64,000 nt of DNA from an uncultured Gemmatimonadales bacterium (GTDB lineage Bacteria > Gemmatimonadota > Gemmatimonadetes > Gemmatimonadales > Gemmatimonadaceae), in assembly GCA_963701965.1 (NCBI GenBank), contig OY969695.1, positions 3,776,001-3,840,000 of the forward strand, in the 5' to 3' direction. Positions 7,667 to 47,053 of this stretch are shown piece after piece. How positions within the stretch are numbered: position 1 is the stretch's first letter; every line of letters begins with the position of its first letter. A program made the translations under genes and the position numbers. A model generated the notes under the pieces. It was not told the origin of the DNA, made no database searches, and saw only the letters and a list, made by a program, of their open reading frames with translations.

Positions 7667-8207
7667 TCAGTCTCCCTTCACCGCCGTACCGAACAGCTGA
7701 CCGAGCTCGCGGAGCGCTTTGCGCGACTCGAATGCAAATAGGCCGATGGTCATGAGGCCGGCCCAGGCCAGCATCACAAACGGGATGATGAGCAGTGGGT
7801 CGCGCCCGCCGGTCGCGAACGCGTACACCACCACGAGGCAGCCGACGATCACGGCGCCAAACCAGAATGATCGTGAAGATGCGAGCGGGGAGCGGGAGTG
7901 GCGATAGCGTGATGGTGCCGTCCACCCTCGTGGTGTCGCCCGCTGAGACAAGCCGACCGCGAATGACTGGTCGGACGCTGTTCCGATAGCCGATGATTCG
8001 CCAGATCTCAAAGCTCGTCTCGTCGAGACGCCCCTCGAACGGGCGCGCGCCAGCCGAGCGTTGCAATTGTTCGGGCTCGATCGCGGCCGCCAGGCGGGCG
8101 CGCGCCGAGGCTAGCGGCAGCGGAGCGTCGATCACGAAACGACGGACCCGAATGAGCGCTGTCCGCGGGGACACGACCCGTACCGGCGCCGGCGTGACCG
8201 TTGACAT
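7667..8207 (-). CDS. Hypothetical membrane protein, split by a +1 frameshift at ~7866
   Basis: Removing one T in ATCATTCTGG joins ...ARIFTII to WFGAVIVGC... (two TM helices); ATG overlaps the R-M stop (TGATG). Confidence 0.7.
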
Positions 8208-10675
8208 CACGTGTTCACCCCCGTAATTCGATAAGCGTTCCTCGCGCATCGCAGCGACTCTTCCGCCCTATCGACGGCCGTCCGGTACTCGGCCTCGGCG
8301 GTTCGCAGTGCCGCGGAAATTGCGCGTTGCTGGTCGACGCCGCCAGCGAGATCGACGACGATCGACTTGACGTGTTCGGGAGTCAATTCGATCAGGCCGG
8401 TAGAGCCCGTGAACTGTCGCTCGATTTGCGCCGCCCCGAATCCGCACCGCAGGTAGTCGGACAGATACTCGGGGAGGACCTCGTCCGCCCTGACACGCAC
8501 GACGGTCACGTGCCCGTCTGCGATCGCGGGGCGATCAGAATCGTAGACACAGCTCTTTCCCAGCGTCCCATCGCCGGTGGACGCGATCAGCACGTCGCCG
8601 CGCCGCACGATGTGGGCGGGCGATTGCTCCTCGAACACGTTCTTCTCGATATAGTCGCCGTCCGTGACCAGCTCGCCGAAACGCGAGATGTTGCTCCCAG
8701 CCTTCACGACCAGCGCGTACCCATCGTCTTCGTCGACATACAGATCCGCGGGAGGACTCTTGCCCCGGCCCGTCGCGATGGTGTTCAACTCCGCGATCGA
8801 CTTCCCGCCTGCGGCCCGCACGGCGGCGATCTGTTGGCGAATCTCCGGATCCCAGTACTTGTAGTCCAGACGGGCATCGGCGCTAGCCACGATCTCCTTC
8901 GTCGACACGTCGTACGCGCTCCACATATAGCCCGACCGCTCGCCACAGCCCGCTTTGCCCACGATGCTATCGGAAGCCTCTCGCAGCAGCCTCTCGAAGT
9001 CGAAGTTCCGCAACGCGTCGCCGGACCCGGCGTAACCCAACGACTGGACGTCCGCGAAGGTGACCGGCGCATCGTCGTCGCCGTCGACGTCGTCGGTCTC
9101 CCGACGTTGCAAGTATAAGACACTGGCTTTGACGTTGATCTTGTTCGGCTTGAACGTCTCATCCGGTAAGCGCACCACCGCCACAACGCGACACTTGGTG
9201 AGCAGCCATCGCCGAAGGCCGGCCGCACCCTCGGTATTCAGCACTCCTTCGTCAATGACGGTGCAGATCTGACCACCGTGCTTCGTGCACCGCACCATCT
9301 TCTGCAGAAAAAGATGCTGCCCTTTTGTGCTGCGGATCGGGTATTCCGACAGATCCCCGCTGGGAAGCGAGTCCGCCTCGGATGTGCCGAACGGCGGGTT
9401 GGTCAAGACGATATCGACATCCGGGTTCTTGGTCTCCCAGATGCGCGCGCTCGCCGCAAGCGTGTCCTCGGCCCGAATGTTCGTATGTCCATCGCCGGCG
9501 ATGATCATGTTCATCTTCGCTGCCGCCGCGACCCCCTCGTTGGCGTCCGCGCCGAAGAAGGTGTATCGCCCGATCTTGGCGGAGATATCGTCGAAAGCCT
9601 GTCTCGTGATCTGCCGACTATCGTACCTGTCCTGCAGCACGCGCTGCGCGTCCTTCATCATGAGCACCAAAAATCCGCCGGTGCCGCACGCAGGGTCGAG
9701 CACCTTGACCGAGGAACCAGCGAGCAAAGAGTTGACTATTTGCTGGCGTCCGATGAGGCACGCCATCAGCTCGACCAGGGGTCGAGGCGTGAAGTACTGA
9801 CCCAATTTCTTCCCTTTGAGCGTAGCGCGTACGAAGTACTCGAACGCCGCGCCCTTCGTATCCAGACCGCTGTCCTGGAATGAAACCGCGGCCAACTGCT
9901 CGATGATGTAGCGAAAAGTCCGCGGCTTGTTGAGATGGATGTCGTCGCCCAGCACATCGCCGAACGTCGCATGCTGTCTGATCCCGGCGATCATCGCGAG
10001 GACCGCGTCCTTGACCTGATCACTGTCCGACACCGGCCGACTCGCCAGTTCGTGAAATCGATACGAGTAGGGAAGCGTGAAGTCCGAGGTGTCCGCCTTC
10101 TCTTCGAGCAGTTTGAGAAAAAGGAGCTTGGCGAAGTCGGCAAAAGCTTCGTCCTCGTTCTTTTCGATCTTTCGGATCGTGTTATGGCACCGGGCGAAGA
10201 GCGCGTTGAGCTGCTTGAGCGCTAGTCCGGGCCGGAACGGAAGACTCGTATCGCCGTCCAGCGGGAGCCCACCGGCCTCGAGGTGGACCATGACAGCAGG
10301 CACTTGCGCCTTGGCCGGGATACGATCGACGAGCGCCCCCTGTATGGGAGCCCGCGTAGCGACATTGAAGCTCTGCATTGCCGCGCCGTTGGTGACCACC
10401 ACGAACGGCACCGCCATCGCCGCCCCATACGCCAGCGCCTGGTCCCGATCCTTCGCCGTCAGCGTCTTCGACGATCGCTTTGCTTCGATGAGAAACAAAG
10501 GCTTTGGTTTGCCACACGTCACCAGGATGTCGACGTAGCCCCTGGCATACCGGTCAGAGTTGGCGACCGGCGTCTCGAATGCGAGGTCCTTGACGGCGTC
10601 GTAGCCCCGGCGCGCGAGATAGGGCAAGATCTTCTTGATGACGGTCTCCGTCTCCGAGGGCCTCTGGCCACGCAT
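8207..10675 (-). CDS. Single-chain restriction-modification enzyme: HsdR_N-like PD-(D/E)xK nuclease, N6-adenine MTase and C-terminal TRD (type IIG/IIC-like)
   Basis: YVDILV...LIEAK; GQYFTPR, VLDPACGTGGFL, NPPF; HsdS-like TRD (RRGDVLIASTGDGTLGKS) and terminal helix. Confidence 0.9.
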   Translation of the reverse strand: MRGQRPSETETVIKKILPYLARRGYDAVKDLAFETPVANSDRYARGYVDILVTCGKPKPLFLIEAKRSSKTLTAKDRDQALAYGAAMAVPFVVVTNGAAMQSFNVATRAPIQGALVDRIPAKAQVPAVMVHLEAGGLPLDGDTSLPFRPGLALKQLNALFARCHNTIRKIEKNEDEAFADFAKLLFLKLLEEKADTSDFTLPYSYRFHELASRPVSDSDQVKDAVLAMIAGIRQHATFGDVLGDDIHLNKPRTFRYIIEQLAAVSFQDSGLDTKGAAFEYFVRATLKGKKLGQYFTPRPLVELMACLIGRQQIVNSLLAGSSVKVLDPACGTGGFLVLMMKDAQRVLQDRYDSRQITRQAFDDISAKIGRYTFFGADANEGVAAAAKMNMIIAGDGHTNIRAEDTLAASARIWETKNPDVDIVLTNPPFGTSEADSLPSGDLSEYPIRSTKGQHLFLQKMVRCTKHGGQICTVIDEGVLNTEGAAGLRRWLLTKCRVVAVVRLPDETFKPNKINVKASVLYLQRRETDDVDGDDDAPVTFADVQSLGYAGSGDALRNFDFERLLREASDSIVGKAGCGERSGYMWSAYDVSTKEIVASADARLDYKYWDPEIRQQIAAVRAAGGKSIAELNTIATGRGKSPPADLYVDEDDGYALVVKAGSNISRFGELVTDGDYIEKNVFEEQSPAHIVRRGDVLIASTGDGTLGKSCVYDSDRPAIADGHVTVVRVRADEVLPEYLSDYLRCGFGAAQIERQFTGSTGLIELTPEHVKSIVVDLAGGVDQQRAISAALRTAEAEYRTAVDRAEESLRCARNAYRITGVNT

Positions 10676-23428: not shown

Positions 23429-23453
23429 AAAAACCGGCCGCTGAAGCGGCCGG
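23429..23453 (-). terminator. Intrinsic terminator in the metH leader
   Basis: CCGGCCGC-TTCA-GCGGCCGG-TTTTT on the minus strand. Confidence 0.85.
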
Positions 23454-23463
23454 GTGGCGGGCG

Positions 23464-23511
23464 CTTTAGCGGTTTGTTTTACGTGGCCGCAATTCGCGTA
23501 AATCGCCACGG
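23464..23511 (-). promoter_or_regulatory. SAM-II (SAM_alpha) riboswitch
   Basis: CCGUGGCGAUUU-ACGCGAA-UUGCGGCCACGU-AAAACAAACCGCUAAAG: P1 CGUGGC/GCCACG, GAUUU loop and GCUAAA pseudoknot strand; upstream of metH. Confidence 0.88.
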
Positions 23512-23549
23512 TGAGCAGTTGTTCCCAACGGACGTAACGTATCCGGCGG

Positions 23550-28224: not shown

Positions 28225-28623
28225 GTGTTCGGCTACATTGAGGCTGTGCCCAAGACCTCCGTCGAGAGCGACGTGAGTGACTACGCCCCAGTCGCCGACC
28301 GCATCGCCCTCTTCTACGAGCGCTACCCCAGCGGCCGCATCGTGACCGATCTCGTCGCGCGCACCGAGCGCGACGTCGTGTTCAAGGCCAGCGTCTACCG
28401 CGTGCCCAATGAGCGCGAGCCCGCGGCTACCGGATGGGCCTCGGAGCGCGAAGGGGACGGCGAGATCAACGCGGTGGCCTGTCTCGAGAACACGGAGACA
28501 TCGGCCATCGGTCGCGCCCTGGCGAACCTCGGCTTCACCGCGTCGCGCGAGCGGGCGAGCGCGGAAGAGATGGCCAAGGCGGCGCGCCGGCGCGCGCACC
28601 TCGGGATGCGAGAGACCGGCTGA
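28225..28623 (+). CDS. Hypothetical protein resembling phage Rad52/Sak-like single-strand annealing domains
   Basis: Y..V..RI..F...YP.G.I.T, VVFKA.V, ATG.A.E, LEN.ETSAIGRALA.LG. Confidence 0.55.
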   Translation: MFGYIEAVPKTSVESDVSDYAPVADRIALFYERYPSGRIVTDLVARTERDVVFKASVYRVPNEREPAATGWASEREGDGEINAVACLENTETSAIGRALANLGFTASRERASAEEMAKAARRRAHLGMRETG

Positions 28624-31017: not shown

Positions 31018-31088
31018 CAGCTGGCGCGCGCCGGCCTGGTCCATTAATCTAGCCGGCGAAGGCAAGAACTCGCTCGCCCCTCGGGGCG

Positions 31089-31188
31089 CTGCGAAAAAGG
31101 CAAACCCGGCGAAAGCCGGCGACGCAAAGCTACGAGGCTACCGAGCGCCGCAAGTCATCGCGCCCTCCACGCCAGTCGAGCCGCCGAA
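31089..31188 (+). promoter_or_regulatory. c-di-GMP-I (GEMM) riboswitch
   Basis: AAAGGCAAACCCGGC-GAAA-GCCGGCGACGCAAAGC...GCCGCCGAA; GNRA-capped P2; G at the Vc2 G20-equivalent position. Confidence 0.88.
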
Positions 31189-31205
31189 CAGACGCAGGGG
31201 GGCGC

Positions 31206-34200
31206 ATGCGTTACCGGTTTCCGGTAGTCGTGCTGGCCTTGTGTGGTGCTATTGGGTGCACTGAGGGCAAAGTCCTCACTGACCCCGCGGCATCGACGGT
31301 GCCAGGTAGTCCCGATTCAACTCGCAGTGTCAGCGTCCTCGTCATCACCCCGTCCTCTGTGACGGGAGCGGTGGGGGCGACCGCGTCGTTAGCGGCATCG
31401 GCGCTCAACGCGAACGGTCAGGCCATGTCGGGCCAGACCTTCACCTGGGCGTCCACCAACACGCAAGTCGCGAGTGTCTCGGATTCCGGGAACGTGACGC
31501 TGATTGGCATCGGCAACACGAGCGTAAGCGTCTCGGCCGCTGGCCTCACCACAACCGTGCCCATCAAAGTGACCGCGGCCGCACCGGCACCGGTGGCGAC
31601 GGTCAGTGTATCACCAACATCAGTCTCACTGAACCCCGGTGGCTCGGCGCAGCTGAGCGCCTCGGCAACGGATGCTTCTGGTACAGCCGTCGCCGGCGCC
31701 ACCGTGGTGTGGTCCTCTTCGAACACGAGCGTTGCTACCGTGTCGGCGAGTGGAGCGATTTCGGCACTGGCCATCGGCGCCGCTGTTATTACGGCGACGA
31801 GCCAGGGGAAGAGCGGGACCGCGAACATCACGGTCGTCGCGGCGTCGCCTGCATCCATTGGCGCGGTCGCGGTGACACCAACGACCGCCACGGTCATTGT
31901 GGGCCGCACGACGCAGATGTCGGCGACGCTCAAAGACTCGGTCGGGAACGTGCTGGGTGGCCGCACCGTTACTTGGAGCAGTGCCAACACCGGGGTGGCG
32001 ACCATCTCGTCGACCGGATTGGTGACTGGTGTGACGACGGGAACCGTGACCATCTCGGCGTCGAGCGGCGGACGGACCGGCACCGCGCAGGTGACGGTGT
32101 CGCCCGTACCGGTCGCGTCGGTCGTCGTCACACCCGGCTCGGCAAACCTGAGCCTCGGACAGACGCTCCAGTTGACGGGCACCGTCGAAGACGCGGGGGG
32201 GAATCCGTTGGGCGGCCAGACCATCGCGTGGAGCAGCAGTAACAGCAGCGTGCTGACGGTCTCTTCGAGCGGTCTCGTGACCGCCGTCGCCACCGGCGAC
32301 GCGACGGTGTCGGCGACCACGAGCGGTAAGACGGGCAGTGCGTCGATCACGGTGATTCCGCCACCGGTCAGCAAGGTGATCGTGGCGCCCGCGACGGACA
32401 CCTTGTCCGCGGGCCAGACCGTGCAGCTCACGGCGACGCCGAAAGACGGGAATAACAATCCGCTGGCCGGAGAACCTCCCGGCACGTGGACCAGCTCGAA
32501 TACCAATGTGGCGACGGTGTCGTCCAGCGGGTTGGTCACCGCCGTGGCCACCGGATCGGCGACGATCACGGTCGAGGTCAATGGCAAGTTCGCGAACGCG
32601 ACCGTCGTAGTGGCACCCATCGCGGTCGCGCAGGTCCTGGTCGCTCCGGCGACCGTGTCCGTCACCGCGGGGCAGACCGCGCAGTTGACGGCGACCGCGA
32701 AGGACGCGGGCGGCAACGTGCTTTCCGGCCGGGCTGCGACGTGGAGCAGCGCGAACACGGGCGTGGCGACCATCTCGACCTCCGGGCTCGTTACGGGAGT
32801 CGGCGCCGGTTCCGCCACGGTCACGGTGACGATCGGCGGAAAGAGCGCCAACGCCGCGATTACCGTCACGGCAGCAGCGCCCGTGGTGGGGACGGTGACG
32901 GTCACGCCGGCATCATCCAGCCTCGCGGCCGGTCAGACCGCGCAGTTGACGGCGACCGACAAGACGTCGGGCGGCACCGTGGTCACCGGTCAAAGCGTGA
33001 CGTGGTCGTCGTCGAATACTGGAGTGGCGACGGTCGGCTCGAGTGGGCTCGTCACCGCGGTGAGCGCGGGCGCCGCGACGATCACGGCGACGAGCGCCGG
33101 GAAAACGGGCACGGCATCGATGACGGTGACGGCGTCGGGAGGAACGGTAGCGACGGTGACGGTCACGCCGGCGTCGTCCAGCCTCACGACCGGCAATCAG
33201 AATGCAGTTGACCGCCACCGACAAGACGTCGGGCGGGACCGTGGTGACCGGTCAATCCGTGACGTGGTCGTCGTCGAATCTCGCGGTGGCGACCGTCGCC
33301 CCGAATGGGATCGTGACCGCGCTGATCGCGGGCGGTGCGACGATCACGGCGACCAGCGCCGGGCATTCGGGCACGGCATCGATCACGGTGAACGCCGGCG
33401 CGGGAACGGGTCCGTTCCACGAACCCGCGGGCATGAACACGCAGATCAACACCGGCAACATGGCGACCGCGCCGGCGATTAGTTATCCGGCGAACACGTG
33501 GACCGAGGGTGGAACGACCTTCACGAACTATTCGCCGACGACGATGTCGGGCACCGGCGAATTCTCGGGCAACCTTTCGGCCGTGCCCGGCGGCACCGGC
33601 CTCCGCGTGACGTACAACAACACGCTGGCGGGCGGCAATAGTCCGGTGCGATTCGGCGCCAACATCGCCAACCACGGCACCGGCTATCTCTACATTCGTT
33701 GGAAGTTCCGTCTCTCGCCGAACTGGACGTTGAGCACGGCCTCCGGCCTCAAGATCATGGAGCCGCGCACCGTCAACTCGACCGAGAACCATGTGTTGGG
33801 CGCGGGAGCCGATGGGCAAGCGACGGACGGCAGCAACATGTGGTTTGGCGCGCTGCTGCAGTTCCAAACGCCGAGCGGGACGACCGGCATCAACATTCCC
33901 GGAAACTCGTCAGGCCAAGCGCCGGTCCCGTCGCAGGTCTTCACGTCGACGGTGGCCAATGTCGGTGGTGCCGCGCGCGGGGCGTGGCACACCATGGAAG
34001 CGTATTACCAGCCGGAGTCGCCCGCGGGGGCGGGGAACGGTCAGCTCACGTTGTGGGTCGACGGGACGCAGGTCTTTCAAACGGGATCTGGGGTCGCGGG
34101 CTCGCCTCCGGGCGGCACGCACTTCTTCCTGAGCGGCGAGTCGATGGGTTGGAACTTCTTGATGTTCGATCCGACGTACGGCGGCGATGCATCCAGCGAC

Positions 34201-34260
34201 CATCCGCCGTCGGCAGGGATCTACTGGGATATCGACGACTTGTACGTCAGTACGAAGTAG
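31206..34260 (+). CDS. Lipoprotein with about 8 tandem Big_2 Ig-like domains and a C-terminal jelly-roll (lyase/lectin-like) domain; +1 frameshift at ~33201
   Basis: Lipobox AIGC; repeated V.V.P....L..GQT.QL.AT...WSS.N..VATV...GLVT units; CAGAATG minus one A joins 31206.. with 33202..34260. Confidence 0.85.
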
Positions 34261-34270
34261 CCGCAGGTCG

Positions 34271-34316
34271 GGGCGGCCCGGGTGATGCGCCTTCCGCTGG
34301 CGTGCGCCCGGGTCGT
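34271..34316 (+). terminator. GC-rich hairpin after the Ig-protein gene
   Basis: GGCGGCCCGGGTG...CGCCCGGGTCGTC stem; weak U tract. Confidence 0.45.
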
Positions 34317-34331
34317 CGCCCATTCTTCGAT

Positions 34332-34922
34332 GTGACTGCGACCCATTCCTTCGTTCGCGTCGCACGTGAGCCTGGCCGTGCGTGGTCTGTTGGCCTCGCG
34401 ATCCTGCGAGGATGGTGGTACAAGGTGAGCTATCCCGCGCGGGGGATTCGCTTTTCCGCGGGCCGCGGGTTTCGCGTGCAAGGCCGGCTGATCGTGCGGG
34501 GACCGGGTCGCGTCCGATTTGGGGACGATGTGCGCGTCGGGATGACGGTGACGCCGTGGACGCACACGGCGGATGCCCTGATCGACGTGGGCCACGAGAC
34601 GTTCCTCAACGGCACGCGATTTGGCTGCGCGCGATCCATCAGCATTGGGCGCCGGTGCATCCTCGCCGACGTCTCGATCCTCGACACGAACTTCCATAGT
34701 ACGCGCGCCGACCGCCACGATCCCGCTGCGCCCGTCAAGGTGGCCGCAGTCGCGCTGGACGACAACGTGTGGGTCGCGTCGGGTGCGGGTCTGCTACCCG
34801 GTACGCGTATCGGTCGCAACTCCGTCGTCGGATTTGGCGCCGTGGTCTCCGGCGATTTCCCCGCGGACGTCATCATCGCGGGAAATCCCGCGGTGGTGGT
34901 CGGCCCCATCCCTCAACTTTGA
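34332..34922 (+). CDS. Hexapeptide-repeat O-acetyltransferase (start uncertain)
   Basis: ILDTNFH, LDDNVWV, PGTRIGRNSVVG, IIAGNPA. Confidence 0.85.
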   Translation: MTATHSFVRVAREPGRAWSVGLAILRGWWYKVSYPARGIRFSAGRGFRVQGRLIVRGPGRVRFGDDVRVGMTVTPWTHTADALIDVGHETFLNGTRFGCARSISIGRRCILADVSILDTNFHSTRADRHDPAAPVKVAAVALDDNVWVASGAGLLPGTRIGRNSVVGFGAVVSGDFPADVIIAGNPAVVVGPIPQL

Positions 34923-35091
34923 GTGATGGCATGAATGCGCGCTCACGGAATTAATGCGCGATAACATGGTCAAGAAATAGGTACAAAAAAATTCGCGAAA
35001 AAGTTCCGCGATGGTCTTGCATCACATTTGGTCTGGCGTCATTGTACGTGCACAATAGCAGTCGCGCAGGCTGAGCAGTTTGCTTGGGCCC

Positions 35092-35190
35092 CGCGACAAA
35101 GGCAAACTCGCGGAAACGCGGGGACGCAAAGCTCTGGAGGCTACCGTAGCCGATCTCTGATCGGTTGCCACGCCAGTCCGGCTACCGAAC
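35092..35190 (+). promoter_or_regulatory. c-di-GMP-I (GEMM) riboswitch
   Basis: AAAGGCAAACTCGCG-GAAA-CGCGGGGACGCAAAGC...GCTACCGAA; G at the G20-equivalent position. Confidence 0.88.
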
Positions 35191-35211
35191 GGACACCTCA
35201 AGAGGTCAGCC

Positions 35212-36519
35212 ATGCGTCCCGTGTTCGCCCGGGGCCGCGCGAGCGCGCGGCATCACATCAAGCACGTCCCTATCACGCTACTCTCCCTAGCCGTCGCCGC
35301 CGCGCTCAGTGCTTGTGGCGACTCCGCTACCGCTCCCGCCTCCGCGTCGTCGGGCACATTGGCGATGGAGTCCGTCGCCTTTACCGTCGCCGGCGTCACG
35401 TACCCGACGGTCACGGTGCAGGGCCTTTCGGGGAATCTCGCCGTTGGCGGCCACGCCACCCTGACGGCCGCGCTGGCGACGCCAACCGCGAAGTGGCTCG
35501 GGGCGCAAGTGACCTGGAAGAGCTCCAACACCGGCGTCGTGTCGATCCAGACGCAGAACTGGGGCTCGGCCAAGGGTGACAACGCAGTCCTCACCGGTGT
35601 GGCCAACGGAACGGCCATCATCACCGGAACGACCCAGAGTGGCACGAGCGGGAGCATCACCGTCACGGTTGGAAGCGCCGGTACGGCGCCGGTCAGCAGT
35701 GGCGGGTTCCACGAACCGTCGGGCATGCACACCCAGATCAACACCGGGGCCATGACCACGGCACCGGCCACGAGCTACCCGGCCGACACGTGGACCGAGG
35801 GCGGCACCACGTTCACGAACTACTCGCCGACGTCGATGTCCAGCACGGGCGAGTGGTCGAAGAACCTCTCGGCGGTTCCGGGGGGCGGCGTGCGCGTCAC
35901 GTACAACCCCTCGCTCGCCGGCGGCAATAGCCCGGTGCGATTCGGCGCGACAATTCCCAGCACGGGCTCCGGGTATCTCTACGTGCGCTGGAAGTTCCGC
36001 CTGTCATCGAACTGGACCCTCAGCAACGCTTCCGGTCTCAAGGTGATGGAGCCGCGCACCGTGAACTCCTCGGAGAATCACGTGCTGGGCGTGGGCGCCG
36101 ATGGCCAGTCGACGAATGGCAGCAACATGTGGATCGGTGCGCTCCTGCAATTCGCGACCTCGAGCGGGACATCCGGGATCAACGTGCCCGGGAACTCCTC
36201 GGGACAGTCGCCGGTGCCGTCGCAGGTCTTCTCGTCGACCGTCGCCAATGTCGGTGGCGCGGCGCGCGGATCGTGGCACACGATGGAGGCGTCCTTCCAG
36301 CCTGAGTCCTCGGCGGGAACGAAGAACGCTGTCATCACGTTCTGGGTCGACGGCGTCCAAGTCAACCAGTCGGGCGGTCTGCACTTGTTCCTGAGCGGCG
36401 AGCGCATGGGGTGGAACTTCCTCATGTTCGACCCGACGTACGGTGGTGATGCCTCCAGCGATCACCCGCCCGCTTCGATCTACTGGGATATCGACCAGCT
36501 GTACGTCAGCACGAAGTAA
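35212..36519 (+). CDS. Lipoprotein with one Ig-like domain and a C-terminal domain paralogous to 33415-34260
   Basis: Lipobox LSAC; FHEP.GM.TQINTG...YVSTK is highly similar to the upstream protein. Confidence 0.85.
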   Translation: MRPVFARGRASARHHIKHVPITLLSLAVAAALSACGDSATAPASASSGTLAMESVAFTVAGVTYPTVTVQGLSGNLAVGGHATLTAALATPTAKWLGAQVTWKSSNTGVVSIQTQNWGSAKGDNAVLTGVANGTAIITGTTQSGTSGSITVTVGSAGTAPVSSGGFHEPSGMHTQINTGAMTTAPATSYPADTWTEGGTTFTNYSPTSMSSTGEWSKNLSAVPGGGVRVTYNPSLAGGNSPVRFGATIPSTGSGYLYVRWKFRLSSNWTLSNASGLKVMEPRTVNSSENHVLGVGADGQSTNGSNMWIGALLQFATSSGTSGINVPGNSSGQSPVPSQVFSSTVANVGGAARGSWHTMEASFQPESSAGTKNAVITFWVDGVQVNQSGGLHLFLSGERMGWNFLMFDPTYGGDASSDHPPASIYWDIDQLYVSTK

Positions 36520-38719: not shown

Positions 38720-38866
38720 AGTCGTGGGAAGCTACACGACTGTTGCGTCTTTGCAACAGCAAACGATAGCGCGCGCCGGCCAACGCTCTATATTGCTAAG
38801 CCATAAGGGTTTGGCCATCCGGTGCAAGCGCGGCTCCGGGCAGCGTCCTTGCAAGAGAATCGATCC

Positions 38867-40273
38867 ATGGCGGAGCAAAAGCTCGTTGCGGCACGCGATC
38901 CGTTCCGGATCGCCTTGTTTATGCTCACGGTGCTCACCGTGAGTCGGATTCATGAACAATACAAATGGATGTCGGTGCTCCGGCCGGCACTCGTCGCGAC
39001 GGCGCTCGCCGCGATCTATGCGTACATGCGTCCGGATGTCGTCTCCAGTCGACCGTTGCTCAAGACGTGGCCGGCGAAGGTCATCGCGGGGTTCGCGCTC
39101 TGGGCCGTCTTGAGCGGGTTCTTCGGCATCTCGTTGGGGAGTACCGCCTCGTTCATCCTCAACGTCTACGTCAAGACGCTGGTCTTCGCCTATCTGCTCA
39201 TCGCGGCGATCCGATCCACCGAAGACCTCAAGACATTTATCTGGGCGTACGTGATCGCCACAGGCTTGCTGTGCTACACGACGTTGTTCGTGTTTTCGTT
39301 GCATCACTATGGCTCGGGCGCGGGGTACGATCGCCTGGCCAACGCCGACACGTACGACGCGAACGACCTGGGGCTCGTGCTCGACGTCGGGCTCGCGCTC
39401 ACGTTGTTGGCGTTCACCACGTCGGGCATCAAGGGCAAGCTGTTCTGCGTCGTGGTGCTGTGCCTCACGGGCGCGGGGATCGCCAAGACGGGCTCGCGCG
39501 GCGCGTTCGTCGGCTTGCTGGCCCTCGGGGCCGGCCTGCTCCTCCTCCTCGATCGCGTGCCGATTTACCAACGCGTGCTGTTCATCATCGTGACGATCGC
39601 CGGCATCTCGATGTTCGCGCCGCCGGGATACTGGCAGCAAATGCAGACCATCCAGGATCCCAAGGCGGACTACAACTGGAGCTCGGTCAACGGTCGCCGG
39701 CAGGTCGCGATCCGCGGCATGGGCTACATGATGAGCTATCCGGTGTTCGGCGTGGGTCTGCACAATTTTCCCAAGGCCGAATGTACGATCTCGGAGAAAG
39801 CGCAGAACTACCAGGTCGGGACCGGTATTCGGTGTACGCCGCCGCACAACGCGTACATTGAGGCCGGCGCCGAGTTGGGGCTGCCGGGCATGGCGTTGTG
39901 GTTGTTCATCATTCCGGGCGGCGTCATCCACCTCGTGTTGCTGCGGGCGCGGCTGCCGCGGGCCTGGGCGCGCGGCGACCCGGAGCAACGATTCTTGTAC
40001 TGCGCGGTGGTGTACTTCGCGGTCGCGCTCATGGGATACACCTTCGGGTCGTTTTTCCTCTCGTTCGCGTGGACCGACATCAGCTACTACCTGATGGCGA
40101 TGCTCGCCGGGGTCTGGATCTGCGTCGAGGACCGCCTGGCGCGGGAGCGCGCCGGCGCGCGCAGTGGGCCGGCCGCGGGCGTTGCCGCCGTGCCCACGGG
40201 TCGCCGGCCCGGGTGGCGGGCCGCCGCATTGGAGGCAGCCGTCGCGCGGCAGCGGCTCATGGGTGGCCGCTGA
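38867..40273 (+). CDS. O-antigen ligase / Wzy-like polymerase
   Basis: DANDLG, TGSRGAFVG, PVFGVG..NF, PHNAYIEAGAELGLPG; many TMs. Confidence 0.88.
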   Translation: MAEQKLVAARDPFRIALFMLTVLTVSRIHEQYKWMSVLRPALVATALAAIYAYMRPDVVSSRPLLKTWPAKVIAGFALWAVLSGFFGISLGSTASFILNVYVKTLVFAYLLIAAIRSTEDLKTFIWAYVIATGLLCYTTLFVFSLHHYGSGAGYDRLANADTYDANDLGLVLDVGLALTLLAFTTSGIKGKLFCVVVLCLTGAGIAKTGSRGAFVGLLALGAGLLLLLDRVPIYQRVLFIIVTIAGISMFAPPGYWQQMQTIQDPKADYNWSSVNGRRQVAIRGMGYMMSYPVFGVGLHNFPKAECTISEKAQNYQVGTGIRCTPPHNAYIEAGAELGLPGMALWLFIIPGGVIHLVLLRARLPRAWARGDPEQRFLYCAVVYFAVALMGYTFGSFFLSFAWTDISYYLMAMLAGVWICVEDRLARERAGARSGPAAGVAAVPTGRRPGWRAAALEAAVARQRLMGGR

Positions 40274-44369: not shown

Positions 44370-45490
44370 CAAAACCGCTGGTCGTCGCCGAGATGCTCGA
44401 GTCCGACGGGCCGGGCGGCGCCGAGCTCGTGGAGCTCCGGCTCGCCCTGGCCCTGCGGGACCGGGGACACACCATCGTTCCGGTGGGGCCGGCCGCGGGC
44501 TGTGGGTGGCTGGCGGGCCAGTTCCGGGACGCCGGATTTGATCCCCAGACCTTCACGTTGCGCCGTCCGCTGGATTGGCGTTGCCTGAGCGGCATGGTCG
44601 ATCTCCTGCGCCGGCATCGCGTCGACATCGTGCATAGCCACGAGTTCACGATGGCCGTCTACGGCGCGGCGGCCGCGCGCTGGCTCGGCGTGCCGCACGT
44701 CATCACCATGCACGGCAGCCAGTACGTCACGGCGAGATGGCGCCGCCAGGTGCTGCTCCGCTGGGCATTTCGGTCGAGCGCCGCGACGATCGCGGTGTCC
44801 GATGATACCAAGCGGCATCTGGAGGATGAGCTGCGTCTGTCGCGCACGGCGTTGCGCGTCGTGCGGAACGGGGTGCCGCGCCGGGCCGGCGACCGCGCCA
44901 CTGTGCGGCGCGAGCTGGGCGTCCCCGATGATCACCTGCTGTTGCTGGCCCTTGGCAGCCTCGTGCCGCGCAAGGGACACGCGGTGCTGATCGAAGCGCT
45001 GTCGACGATCGGCGCCGGCCCGTGGATGCTCGCCATCGGCGGTGGCGGCGTGGAGCGCGATCGATTGGCGGCGCTGGCCGACGCGCGGGGACTGGGGCAA
45101 CACGTGCGGTTGTTGGGCCATCGTGAAGATGTGCCAGACCTGTTGGCCGCCGCGGACGTGTTCGTGATGCCCTCGCTGTGGGAGGGGTTGCCGCTCGCGC
45201 TGCTCGAGGCGATGCTCGCCGGCAAGCCCGTCGTGGCGTCGCGGACATCGGGGATTCCCGAGGCCGTCCACGACGGGGTCGATGGCCTGCTCACGCCGCC
45301 GGGCAATGTCGCCGCCCTGGCCCGGGCATTGGCGACGGTGCTGGGCGATCCGGAACGGCGGAAGGCGCTTGCCGCCGCCGCCTACAGTCGGGCATCGTCG
45401 GCGTTCACGCTCGACGCGATGGCCGACGGGTACGAAGCCGTGTTCCGCGACTCGCTCCGCGCCTTAGGCGGGGCCAACGGCCGGCCGTAG
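44366..45490 (+). CDS. Glycosyltransferase family 4
   Basis: GGAE, RKGH, PSLWEGLPLALLEAM. Confidence 0.92.
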   Translation: MTKPLVVAEMLESDGPGGAELVELRLALALRDRGHTIVPVGPAAGCGWLAGQFRDAGFDPQTFTLRRPLDWRCLSGMVDLLRRHRVDIVHSHEFTMAVYGAAAARWLGVPHVITMHGSQYVTARWRRQVLLRWAFRSSAATIAVSDDTKRHLEDELRLSRTALRVVRNGVPRRAGDRATVRRELGVPDDHLLLLALGSLVPRKGHAVLIEALSTIGAGPWMLAIGGGGVERDRLAALADARGLGQHVRLLGHREDVPDLLAAADVFVMPSLWEGLPLALLEAMLAGKPVVASRTSGIPEAVHDGVDGLLTPPGNVAALARALATVLGDPERRKALAAAAYSRASSAFTLDAMADGYEAVFRDSLRALGGANGRP

Positions 45491-47053
45491 GCGCTCACGC
45501 GCCTTGGCCGCCAGCGTGGTCGGCAGCTGGAGCAGGGCCCGCTTGTCGGTCTCGGTCAAAATCGGCAGGGACCAGAGTAGCGCCGCAAAGATGATGTACT
45601 CGCTGACGCGGGCGGCCAGCGCCAACACCATGGAATGCACCGTGATCAGTTCGCTCGCCACCACGGTGGCCACCGAGAGCGCAATGAGGATGCGCACCGG
45701 TTTCCAGTTGTATTTGACGGGCCACAGCCGCTGGGAAAACGTGTACGTCAACGCCCAGCGCACCGAGTAGGCGAGCGCGGTCGCGATGGCCGCACCCCAG
45801 CCGGCGAACCGCGGGATCAGCGCCAGGTAGGCGACGACCACGACGGCGGCCGCCGTCCAGTTGGCGATCGCAATGTACTTGGTCTGCTCGCTGATGGCGA
45901 TGCCGACGTCTTGCGCCCCGGTCCACGCCTGGAAGATGATCGCGATCAGCAGCACCGGCACGACGTCGGCCGCCCCGTAGAATGGAGGGGTGGCCATGAT
46001 CCGCAGCACGCCGTGGACGAACAACGACATGCCGACCGCCAAGACGAACAACGTGACGTTTTGGTAGACGAACACGCGCGCATAGATCGTATCCCGGTCC
46101 GGTCGCCGGGCCACTTCGTATTTCTTGGGCTCCCACACGAGATCGAACGGCGCTTGGGCCAGGGTCGCCAGCAGGAACGCGAACTGGTAGGCCATCGTGT
46201 AGCGGCCGACCGACGCGAGGTCGGACGCCAGGCGCAGGACCGGACGATCGCCGAACGTGAGCACGAACGTCGCGAACTGCGTCACGATCAGTGGTCCGCC
46301 ATACCGGTAGAGATCGCGGGCCACGACCCGGTCGTACCCAAATCCCACTTCCCGGAACACCATCGCCGACATGATGCTGCCAATGACGAGGTTCACGATC
46401 AACGTGCTCAGGAAGATGGACTTGGGGCCGTAATGAAAATGCACGAGAAAGATCGCGTTCATCGACACCTGCATGGCCAGGCGCACGATGTTGATCGCGA
46501 TCAAGGTCGGAAACCGGCCCTTGAGCCGGAGAAAGACGGGTGGCACGAAGTACGGCGCGACGACGGCCATGTTCACCGCCGCCAACCGGATCAACGGCGT
46601 ATACTTGACGTCCCCGATGACGAGGCGCGCGAACAAGGGCGCCAAGAAAAATGCCGCCACGGCGGCGACCGCATACCCGCCGTAGATCGTGAGCATGGCG
46701 GTGGAGACCACGCGCCGCCGTGTCGTCGCGTCGTCCGTCTTGTAGTAGAACCGGAACACGCCGGCGAGCAGCCGGGACCCGGCGACGATTTGCAGGACAT
46801 CGAGGCTGATCTCAATGAGCTCGATGACGCCATAGTCCGCGGCCGTGAGATACCGCGTGTACAGCGGCAGCATGAAGAACCCGACGCCTTTGCTGACCAG
46901 CGTGACGGCGGCGAACAGCATGGCGTAGCTGCCGAGCGACTGGAGGCGCAGCGGCGGCGCGCCCGGCGGGACTGGCGAGTCACCGGGAAGGAGCGGGTCG
47001 TCTGCGGCGTATGGGGAGACGGAACCGAGGCCGTCTTCCGACTCGTCTGTCAC
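45464..47053 (-). CDS. Wzx-type oligosaccharide flippase
   Basis: LPLYTRYLTAADYG, multiple TMs, GAAIAT. Confidence 0.88.
   Translation of the reverse strand: MTDESEDGLGSVSPYAADDPLLPGDSPVPPGAPPLRLQSLGSYAMLFAAVTLVSKGVGFFMLPLYTRYLTAADYGVIELIEISLDVLQIVAGSRLLAGVFRFYYKTDDATTRRRVVSTAMLTIYGGYAVAAVAAFFLAPLFARLVIGDVKYTPLIRLAAVNMAVVAPYFVPPVFLRLKGRFPTLIAINIVRLAMQVSMNAIFLVHFHYGPKSIFLSTLIVNLVIGSIMSAMVFREVGFGYDRVVARDLYRYGGPLIVTQFATFVLTFGDRPVLRLASDLASVGRYTMAYQFAFLLATLAQAPFDLVWEPKKYEVARRPDRDTIYARVFVYQNVTLFVLAVGMSLFVHGVLRIMATPPFYGAADVVPVLLIAIIFQAWTGAQDVGIAISEQTKYIAIANWTAAAVVVVAYLALIPRFAGWGAAIATALAYSVRWALTYTFSQRLWPVKYNWKPVRILIALSVATVVASELITVHSMVLALAARVSEYIIFAALLWSLPILTETDKRALLQLPTTLAAKARERLRPAVGPA

Follow-up and report, generated by a model that had tools for sequence, protein, structure and literature searches.

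Among the closest described relatives of the system presented here are the class I cyclic di-GMP (c-di-GMP) riboswitches of Rfam family RF01051, including Vc2 and Vc1 of Vibrio and the class I switches of Clostridioides difficile. The C. difficile switches act as transcriptional OFF switches (PMC11477304), and Vc1 positively controls the secreted N-acetylglucosamine (GlcNAc)-binding protein GbpA by a mechanism described as unclear, neither a terminator nor an anti-Shine-Dalgarno element being apparent (PMC4744006). Here, we describe two riboswitches of this family in a stretch of 64,000 nt (the window; contig OY969695.1, positions 3,776,001 to 3,840,000, assembly GCA_963701965.1) from an uncultured Gemmatimonadales soil bacterium of the Gemmatimonadaceae. 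Each fronts a gene for a lipoprotein with an Ig-like stalk, long in unit 1 and short in unit 2; both proteins end in the same C-terminal domain (the tip or head), and the two units lie inside an exopolysaccharide (EPS) locus. Our best explanation, which we put forward tentatively, is that c-di-GMP switches both genes OFF and that the stalked heads, predicted to have a lyase fold and made at low c-di-GMP levels, would cut or loosen the putative uronic-acid polymer of this locus.

The two aptamers are located as follows:

31089 to 31189, plus strand: c-di-GMP-I (GEMM-I) aptamer 1 (Rfam/Infernal; 31090 to 31189 in the Rfam match), with G20 at 31099, A47 at 31126 and C92 at 31184
35091 to 35189, plus strand: c-di-GMP-I aptamer 2 (Rfam/Infernal), with G20 at 35101, A47 at 35128 and C92 at 35185

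Both had been proposed in a first-pass annotation made from the letters alone, and Infernal bore this out with RF01051 scores of 64.9 bits for aptamer 1 and 63.0 bits for aptamer 2, against a gathering score of 35. The same annotation had stressed a G at the G20-equivalent position, which is indeed present in both RNAs. G20 and C92 are contacts of c-di-GMP, with A replacing G20 in sensors of cyclic GMP-AMP (cGAMP) (PMC6140456), and A47 has been named as a ligand-contact base (PMC4744006). A GEMM-Ib (3',3'-cGAMP) identity was rejected, as it needs A at position 20, where G stands in both aptamers and in all seven Infernal matches of the genome. The c-di-GMP-I-GGC variant (RF03167), recognized by G in place of A47 as read from the model consensus, was likewise discarded for unit 1: the score of 60.2 bits against 59 reflects clan overlap, and the RNA has A47. 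This base occurs in 59/59 aptamers collected from the family with a search pattern allowing A or G; tallies of G20 and C92 in this set are fixed by the pattern and do not count as evidence. The genome has 13 GGDEF matches, seven of them full-length with GG(D/E)EF, and these seven keep an Asp after GHxxG, which was counted against cGAMP sensing and which we take to speak against the Hypr signature. Judged by these features, both RNAs very probably bind c-di-GMP.

In total, the genome (one contig of 5.12 Mb, 94.96% complete) holds seven c-di-GMP-I aptamers, and RF01051 was present in 81/100 family genomes, a tally that, like those of the tip and of exosortase below, includes the unpublished genome G007. 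The P3 stem, originally called atypical, is a lineage trait, because the pattern, together with a small spacing to a start codon, is carried by all seven aptamers of this genome and by 56 of the 59 family aptamers; the latter were gathered by pattern from fetched loci, and 42 of them are non-redundant. The ATGs lie 17 nt (unit 1) and 22 nt (unit 2) past the aptamer ends, in agreement with the roughly 20 nt and the missing terminator read from the sequence before: the scan gave no plus-strand intrinsic terminator after either aptamer, and TTTT within 60 nt occurs in only 2/59 family aptamers. A sigma-70 scan returned one site where 0.8 were expected, so that promoters and start sites are guesses, and contigs of an RNA run that overlap parts of both units are not informative on transcription, start sites or strand.

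Translational control of both genes is very likely, and in our folding models the partner of the ribosome-binding site (RBS) is the 5' leader and not a local hairpin. The elements concerned are:

31070 to 31094, plus strand: 5' leader hairpin of unit 1, including an anti-RBS arm; predicted to sequester the P1 5' strand when no ligand is bound
31189 to 31208, plus strand: extended P1 3' strand with the purine-rich RBS (31197 to 31202) and the start codon of the long gene; the P1 extension covaries
35061 to 35097, plus strand: 5' leader of unit 2, with an invariant anti-P1 element and a GGCUG(A) arm whose complement lies directly 5' of the ATG

A local hairpin, ACCTC-AA-GAGGT, had been suggested to mask the RBS of unit 2. 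This element did not survive scrutiny: with -3.7 kcal/mol and a z of -0.34 it is at chance level, and such hairpins are not enriched in the family, linker plus RBS folded alone giving a mean z of 0.11 (4/40 below -1.5). The signal is found in the leader instead. Among the 42 non-redundant aptamers, pairing between a leader and its own RBS beats pairing with other RBSs (residual -3.0 kcal/mol, 0/20000 permutations; best tenth in 22/42), with the reservation that these sequences are kin and the leader p-values consequently overstated. When the aptamer fold was imposed, 12.5 kcal/mol were needed to open the RBS next to its own leader, vs 9.5 next to swapped and 9.1 next to shuffled leaders (higher in 28/37 each); 37 of the 42 leaders were scorable, and five were excluded because their linker was short or their P1 did not pair. 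In 31/37 models with a formed aptamer, the own leader sequesters the RBS (at least 6 of 16 nt). This pairing is not merely a by-product of the leader hairpin, because those leader bases which the hairpin leaves unpaired likewise form more pairs with their own RBS than with swapped RBSs (3.7 vs 2.8, p 0.012).

The helices of the two predicted states are supported to different degrees. The P1 extension is 89% paired in 22 leaders with 22 cells altered on both sides, and 0/500 shuffles reach its paired percentage, its two-sided count or its covariation score, while slid controls are 22–43% paired; this helix came from RNAalifold on the same alignment on which it was tested, with kin sequences that are not independent. 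In both alignments, the canonical pairing of the aptamer was missed by RNAalifold, which served only as a lead. On the opposing side, the leader hairpin of unit 1 reaches -17.1 kcal/mol (z -4.06, 0/200 shuffles), the leader folded alone captures the P1 5' strand in 35/37 cases, and the elements of the unit-2 type are invariant in 16/16 short-type leaders, i.e., conserved without covariation. A motif resembling GGCA-x-GATCGC is conserved 20–25 nt 5' of many aptamers. The anti-P1 arm makes up its 3' part, and its 5' part could be a promoter element or an RNA contact.

Switching OFF upon c-di-GMP binding is likely, and is predicted family-wide, because opening the RBS takes more energy in the bound model than in the free one (13.0 vs 7.1 kcal/mol; higher by more than 2 in 30/37, with the reverse in none). 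For the window, the respective costs are 16.8 bound and 9.0 free in unit 1, and 10.9 and 3.3 in unit 2. An OFF direction, which the first-pass annotation had left open together with the choice between anchoring and trimming, would suit release or trimming more than anchoring. Several points nevertheless weigh against this prediction. The constraints of the free state bias its opening cost downward, and by nearest-neighbour energies the closed-RBS state is already more stable than the free one when ligand is absent (median -4.3 kcal/mol), so that switching would need to be kinetic, or the energies are off. Unconstrained minimum free energy folds bury the RBS in both window leaders (costs 15.6 and 11.3), as ON logic would have it, and in unit 1 they do so through a second anti-RBS in distal P3, a region whose cognate signal is weaker (residual of -1.6 at p 5e-5, with a mean shuffle z of just -0.23). 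The anti-P1 helix, although 87% paired in the 22 leaders, covaries weakly (11 of 500 shuffles), and the short-type helices are never altered on both sides.

These folds lend some weight to an alternative in which the RNAs are ON switches and non-catalytic heads anchor EPS to the cell at high c-di-GMP, replacing exosortase/PEP-CTERM surface proteins. Such a system would fit the usual logic from c-di-GMP to biofilm as well as the positive control of GbpA by Vc1 (PMC4744006), and besides unit 1 several long-type leaders have a distal-P3 anti-RBS. We consider it unlikely, given that the RBS of the aptamer-formed models is sequestered by the own leader and in no case opens more easily than that of the free model, and that hairpin-unpaired leader bases prefer their own RBS. 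As a main platform, the distal-P3 anti-RBS was set aside, as its signal falls short of that of the leader and is not consistent from one orthologue to the next; it remains a caveat.

The coding parts of the two units, with the features between them, are:

31206 to 34260, plus strand: long lipoprotein gene, encoding a signal peptide with a lipobox-like Cys, eight Big_2 repeats and the tip domain
33409 to 34257, plus strand: first tip domain (283 aa; homologous to tip 2), with a weak PF14099 match (E 3.5e-4, below cut-off)
34270 to 34322, plus strand: strong GC hairpin 3' of the long gene (z -2.92 for 34262 to 34330), a possible terminator or stabiliser without a long U tract
34332 to 34922, plus strand: hexapeptide-repeat O-acetyltransferase, WbbJ/WcaF-like, below equivalog cut-offs
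35212 to 36519, plus strand: short lipoprotein gene (435 aa, intact), with lipobox LSA-C, one Ig-like repeat and the tip domain
35701 to 36516, plus strand: tip domain 2 (272 aa), a predicted beta-jelly roll with near-invariant K114, N126 and Q150

A shared C-terminal domain of about 270 aa, as described earlier, is evident from 220 identical residues between the two tips, which are the sole copies in this genome. The stalks of eight and one Ig domains on lipoproteins stand as far as repeat counts and lipobox are concerned: the long protein carries 7 + 1 Big_2 repeats (PF02368), the short one a single repeat, and in both the lipobox-like Cys is conserved in orthologues (judged by pattern and conservation, with no dedicated predictor). 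The single repeat of the short protein has no Pfam match itself; PF02368 is found at this place in many orthologues, and the family profile matches an Ig-like stretch of 7quz. Repeats 7 and 8 of the long gene share 217/258 positions at the DNA level. What does not stand is the long gene as one open reading frame (ORF) in the window, as the frame breaks at 33200/33201 in this assembly. ORF 31206 to 33482 comprises the signal peptide and seven repeats and lacks the tip, and ORF 33202 to 34260 holds the rest of repeat 8 and the tip; read through, the product would have ~1017 aa.

We read this break as a likely assembly indel, because one contig of an independent soil Illumina run (33126 to 33266, no other differing letters, depth 4) lacks base 33201 (X2 gave no coverage at the break), 11 of 13 longer homologues continue uninterrupted (917–935 aa, with seven repeats), and metH in the same window also shifts frame relative to relatives. 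A programmed frameshift or a natural pseudogene is disfavoured by the same contig (only one), the intact homologues and the second frame change in metH. The latter, at ~23280 on the minus strand, is probably a second indel of the assembly, given the intact proteins of relatives. A third could affect another aptamer target of this genome (G000, 3273686 to 3273988), a lipoprotein of 101 aa as read, with a frame that seems to be interrupted early. Upstream of metH, a SAM_alpha riboswitch (23445 to 23519, minus strand, 44.2 bits) occupies the same place in several relatives, though the family is described as alphaproteobacterial.

The tip had been presented as an uncharacterised domain; its AlphaFold model resembles PL14 and PL36 lyases. 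The model of tip 2 (35 sequences, pLDDT 94.1, pTM 0.92) is a beta-jelly roll, and its best structural match among 48,161 chains was the PL14 enzyme AkAly30 (5gmt; Z 17.9, rmsd 3.1, 219 aligned residues), together with PL36 Aly36B (6kcv; Z 17.0, rmsd 3.4, 220 aligned) and PL14 vAL-1 (3a0n; Z 17.0, rmsd 3.1, 212 aligned). Cip1 (Z 15.3) and a fungal glucuronan lyase (Z 15.2) came next, ranks 1–8 of Foldseek were all PL36, PL14 or fungal glucuronan lyase, and the top matches of an Atlas search were unnamed clusters, the named ones being PF21294/PF14099. Besides the predicted PL14/PL36-like fold, the tip shares with these families a conserved Lys on an inner strand and a C-terminal (T/V)YGG motif, and 3 of 26 distant tips match PF21294 at E up to 0.1 (best 3.3e-5). 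Among 129 tip domains from 198 stored proteins, Lys114 is found in 125, Asn126 in 126 and Gln150 in 128, and the domain is C-terminal in 121. These three residues look more like a catalytic set than otherwise, because they are 97–99% conserved in tips that are otherwise 30–80% identical. The head probably engages an acidic glycan; whether it is also catalytic we judge to be evenly balanced.

A number of observations stand against reading the head as a member of these families or as an enzyme. In Aly36B, the acid and the base are both Lys143, Arg169, Tyr185 and Tyr187 being conserved as well, and vAL-1 depends on Lys197 (PMC8286568, PMC13709232); for AkAly30, no such residues were found in the literature searched. 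In the 129 tips, a conserved Arg or Tyr-x-Tyr on the two strands after the Lys was not seen, and Asn and Gln are near-invariant where PL36 has Arg169, Tyr185 and Tyr187, a mapping by strand order only. Mapping residues onto Aly36B via an intermediate family was abandoned, its link to Aly36B (E 0.05) being too weak to use. Sequence identity between the tip and PL14/PL36 is 8–13%, and neither of the two profiles used gave a sequence match to a solved lyase of the Protein Data Bank. Both window tips stay under the Pfam cut-offs for polysaccharide lyases (PF14099 20.9 vs 29.9 bits for tip 1, no match for tip 2). GH16 and lectin-like folds follow at Z 12–14.

These deviations would suit a lectin-like, non-catalytic head that is made in the low-c-di-GMP state for initial attachment, for holding a thin capsule or as a decoy. 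It draws on the same RNA evidence as our preferred reading, on the divergent active-site strands and on the lectin- and GH16-type folds, as well as on a homologue beside prophage genes in a protein with carbohydrate-binding module (CBM) and Ig domains. We give this alternative little probability, as the conservation of the three polar residues looks catalytic and the three top-ranking folds all belong to lyases, the first GH16 lying some 3 Z lower. That the Arg and Tyr residues of PL36 are not evident would suit the ON-switched anchor as well.

Two side observations concern the fold. A second PL14-like family of Gemmatimonadota (L134–L144) is homologous to the tip (HMM-HMM probability 96.6%), has a Tyr-rich strand and is often multicopy. 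In the homologue next to prophage genes (L052:5853-16617; G180:C111), the tip ends a protein of 1506 aa that has CBM_5_12, GH10-like and Big_2 matches, beside terminase and portal genes and with neither riboswitch nor EPS genes. It was the only prophage-like case; the close profile gave no tip in the viral_contigs set or the phage collection, a negative that covers close relatives of the tip.

The surrounding locus consists of:

24976 to 64000, strand not assigned: Wzy-dependent EPS/capsule locus with VanZ, XrtA-type deacetylase, FemAB-like, GT2/GT4, DegT, Wzy, Wzx, acyltransferase, NDP-sugar dehydrogenase and amidotransferase genes
38822 to 40273: Wzy_C
45464 to 47053: Wzx

From its gene content, with Wza and Wzc just past the window end, this is a Wzx/Wzy-dependent polysaccharide cluster, and its NDP-sugar dehydrogenase was counted in favour of a uronic-acid polymer. 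Loci of the XrtA/PEP-CTERM type share with it the genes matching TIGR03006 (deacetylase) and TIGR03019 (FemAB-like), both over the NCBIfam cut-off here, and TIGR03087-, TIGR03088-, TIGR03097- and TIGR03108-like genes are present below cut-off. In contrast to such loci, exosortase (PF09721) had no match in this genome at its 94.96% completeness nor in the two congeners searched (0/2), while it is present in 43/100 family genomes. XrtA-type genes without exosortase are what one would expect if the lipoproteins were ON-switched anchors replacing PEP-CTERM proteins; against this, aptamer-fronted Ig lipoproteins also occur in genomes that have exosortase. Further genes of the region include a receiver plus degenerate GGDEF gene between wza and wzc, followed by a sigma-54 regulator and kinase pair (24976-64000 and L133), and a small conserved gene between the FemAB-like gene and a GT4 gene (28225 to 28623, plus strand; 84% identical in L058). 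Outside the locus, the window encodes an N6-methylase with an HSDR_N domain (8207 to 10675, minus strand; restriction-modification-like), then an unannotated 207-aa gene.

The link to EPS loci, for which a survey of relatives had been proposed as a check, is confirmed. At least two EPS-like genes were found in 17/20 stretches around tip genes (18 genomes) vs 4/255 background 20-kb bins of this genome, EPS-like genes being called by tblastn with 19 window proteins and two of the four positive bins being this locus itself. The tip was matched in 31/401 family genomes, including 4/5 congeners. Among 51 tip-bearing frames at 28 loci, 29 have an aptamer directly upstream, nine are pieces of disrupted genes whose aptamer lies at a greater distance upstream, and four run off the contig end. 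The remaining nine lack an aptamer by pattern, including a Polyangiaceae copy, the prophage copy and the five most distant homologues; Infernal scans covered most tip loci, except L051 and L053–L057. The module is real and conserved in Gemmatimonadaceae, and it is fairly likely that the heads act on the EPS of their own locus, although some tip homologues are accompanied by neither an aptamer nor EPS genes, one of them lying beside the prophage terminase and portal genes.

A role in the periplasm should be weighed here, too. Many lipoproteins face the periplasm by default, and together with the location inside a biosynthesis locus this could mean that the heads are housekeeping lyases that clear mis-exported polymer, stalk length being periplasmic reach. 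Such a role is described for AlgL (PMC13709232). Yet a clearing enzyme should be on during polymer synthesis rather than repressed by c-di-GMP, and the module is patchy (31/401). Eight Ig repeats would also be long for a periplasm, and we regard this option as very improbable.

The arrangement of units differs between loci, which hold one to four units, in one case only the long gene. The O-acetyltransferase separates the units here, as stated in the first-pass annotation, and it does so only in this genome among those compared; it is not a fixed spacer. The window's order is local, because in the five relatives with both units and the acetyltransferase in view (L038, L039, L040, L058 and L063) the latter follows adjacent units in the order long–short–acetyltransferase; L067 has long–acetyltransferase only. 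Stalks have seven repeats in this genus and four in two members counted from another genus. The display of one head at two distances from the membrane remains a suggestion, given these varying repeat counts and unit numbers.

The two heads are kept alike. In a tree of 22 tips from ten loci, tips of one locus group together, whether long or short; of 42 rows, 20 that were distant, duplicate or unpaired had been left out, and the long group was named by repeat count after the 42-row tree had been seen. The approximately unbiased (AU) test rejects trees in which long tips are held together, with p-AU 0.0009 for all ten loci and 1.7e-57 for the six of the congener clade. At five loci, tips are 78% identical within the locus vs 62–66% between loci, whereas the first 130 residues are 30% identical within vs 61–66% between. 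Because tips group by locus while the first 130 residues differ within it, the long and short types are old and their heads have been repeatedly homogenised within loci. Gene conversion would be the obvious route, and matching of both heads to a strain-specific polymer is a conceivable cause.

This pattern also bears on the option that the heads target foreign glycans, such as the EPS of other cells or plant and algal polyuronides, and that the EPS locus is merely a variable insertion region. Order, number and orientation of units do vary between loci, homologues exist outside EPS loci, and other regulon members, e.g., a GH6 gene, are not near EPS genes. Nonetheless, we think this very unlikely, in view of the 17/20 linkage across several genera, of tips homogenised within loci yet diverging between strains, and of the window annotation, in which uptake or catabolic genes were not noticed beside the units.

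Apart from the tip loci, 20 further aptamer loci of the family were picked from the best-scoring RF01051 matches, biased to longer contigs, and 14 of them have at least two EPS-like genes. Big_2 was found in 15 of 19 called targets and a lipobox-like pattern in most. Their heads are different and non-homologous, including PL14-like, beta-helix/chondroitinase-B-like, ricin-B, GH6 and S8 protease domains and several unnamed ones. Such a swap of unrelated glycan-type heads on one chassis would favour a shared task on the local polymer. Against it, the other five aptamers of this genome are not at EPS loci; they precede genes for two related lipoproteins, one of which matches GH30 weakly, for a receiver-domain protein and for two unknowns. 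A more sweeping version would be a Gemmatimonadaceae-wide, RNA-only c-di-GMP regulon for slime shedding, whose translational OFF platform, the 5' anti-P1/anti-RBS hairpin competing with an extended P1, gates Ig-stalked lipoproteins with heads exchanged among unrelated glycan-cleaving folds to suit the EPS of each strain, here with a new Lys/Asn/Gln lyase family that gene conversion would keep similar between the two stalk lengths; as a whole, this proposal is rather doubtful.

Among the further targets, an aptamer-fronted beta-helix head of ~480 aa recurs (L118, L120, L121 and L122), with a long/short pair (1396 and 708 aa) near EPS genes in L121; structural relatives of this head occur with PEP-CTERM, GT2 and ricin fusions. 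In addition, a lone receiver-domain gene (L002:1047-1475, minus strand) and a receiver-GGDEF gene (L091:554-1489, minus strand) are aptamer-fronted, suggesting signalling feedback.

Returning to the OFF-switched lyase-fold heads that we prefer, the following course of events can be envisaged. When ligand is bound, P1 would close and zip outward, and the freed 5' arm would pair over RBS and start codon; without ligand, the 5' hairpin would capture the anti-RBS arm together with the P1 5' strand and leave the RBS open. At high c-di-GMP, each leader would thus be closed over its RBS while the EPS genes stay expressed, as translational control could silence these genes singly without stopping the flanking biosynthesis genes. 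Upon a drop in c-di-GMP, both lipoproteins would be made, and their heads could cut or loosen the polymer at two depths, long and short stalks reaching different depths of the envelope or capsule. Gene conversion may keep both heads matched to one strain-specific polymer. Of the original idea, the aptamer type, translational control, a glycan-directed head and the tie to the EPS locus are supported; the proposed masking element, the atypical P3 and the acetyltransferase as a fixed spacer are not.

If correct, this would provide a concrete way in which c-di-GMP-I riboswitches of a diderm phylum could control translation, a setting where platforms are hard to define, as for Vc1 (PMC4744006). It would further add a candidate new lyase or lectin family beside PL14/PL36 and a first model of how c-di-GMP couples to EPS release in an abundant, mostly uncultured soil phylum, with a per-gene switch that would let degradative heads be silenced singly inside a biosynthesis cluster. 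Each part is of a known kind; the literature searched gave no description of their combination, of the expression platform, of the head family or of the homogenised tips. Among the titles and abstract openings covered, none described these riboswitches or lipoproteins in Gemmatimonadota, a search that left most subscription journals outside and to which supplements of riboswitch surveys, which may list the aptamers, did not belong.

Compared with known systems, the heads share with PL14/PL36 a fit that covers almost the whole domain, PL20 and Cip1 being next nearest, and differ in being fused to lipoprotein Big_2 stalks. Other EPS loci encode degrading enzymes as well, with PslG, PelA and BcsZ as further examples, and AlgL-type enzymes are co-expressed with their own operons. 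AlgL has in common with the present heads a glycan-cleaving fold encoded among biosynthesis genes, whereas AlgL-type enzymes have no Ig stalk, no gene-specific riboswitch and no long/short pairs. With the RF01051 switches of Vibrio (Vc2, Vc1) and C. difficile (class I), the aptamers share scores over threshold, G20/A47/C92, a GNRA-type P2 loop and the control of surface-protein genes; here, a covarying P1 extension and a 5' leader hairpin that would act as both anti-P1 and anti-RBS are added. In its logic, Vc1, being ON for GbpA (PMC4744006), is the nearest counter-example. The nearest precedent is PPEP-1 (ZmpI) of C. difficile, an exported surface-release enzyme under a class I OFF switch (PMC11477304), where the OFF direction is shown, while here it is predicted. 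That switch is transcriptional and the enzyme a secreted protease acting on sortase-anchored adhesins (PMC11477304), whereas the Gemmatimonadaceae system would be translational and would govern membrane-anchored glycan-type heads within an EPS locus.

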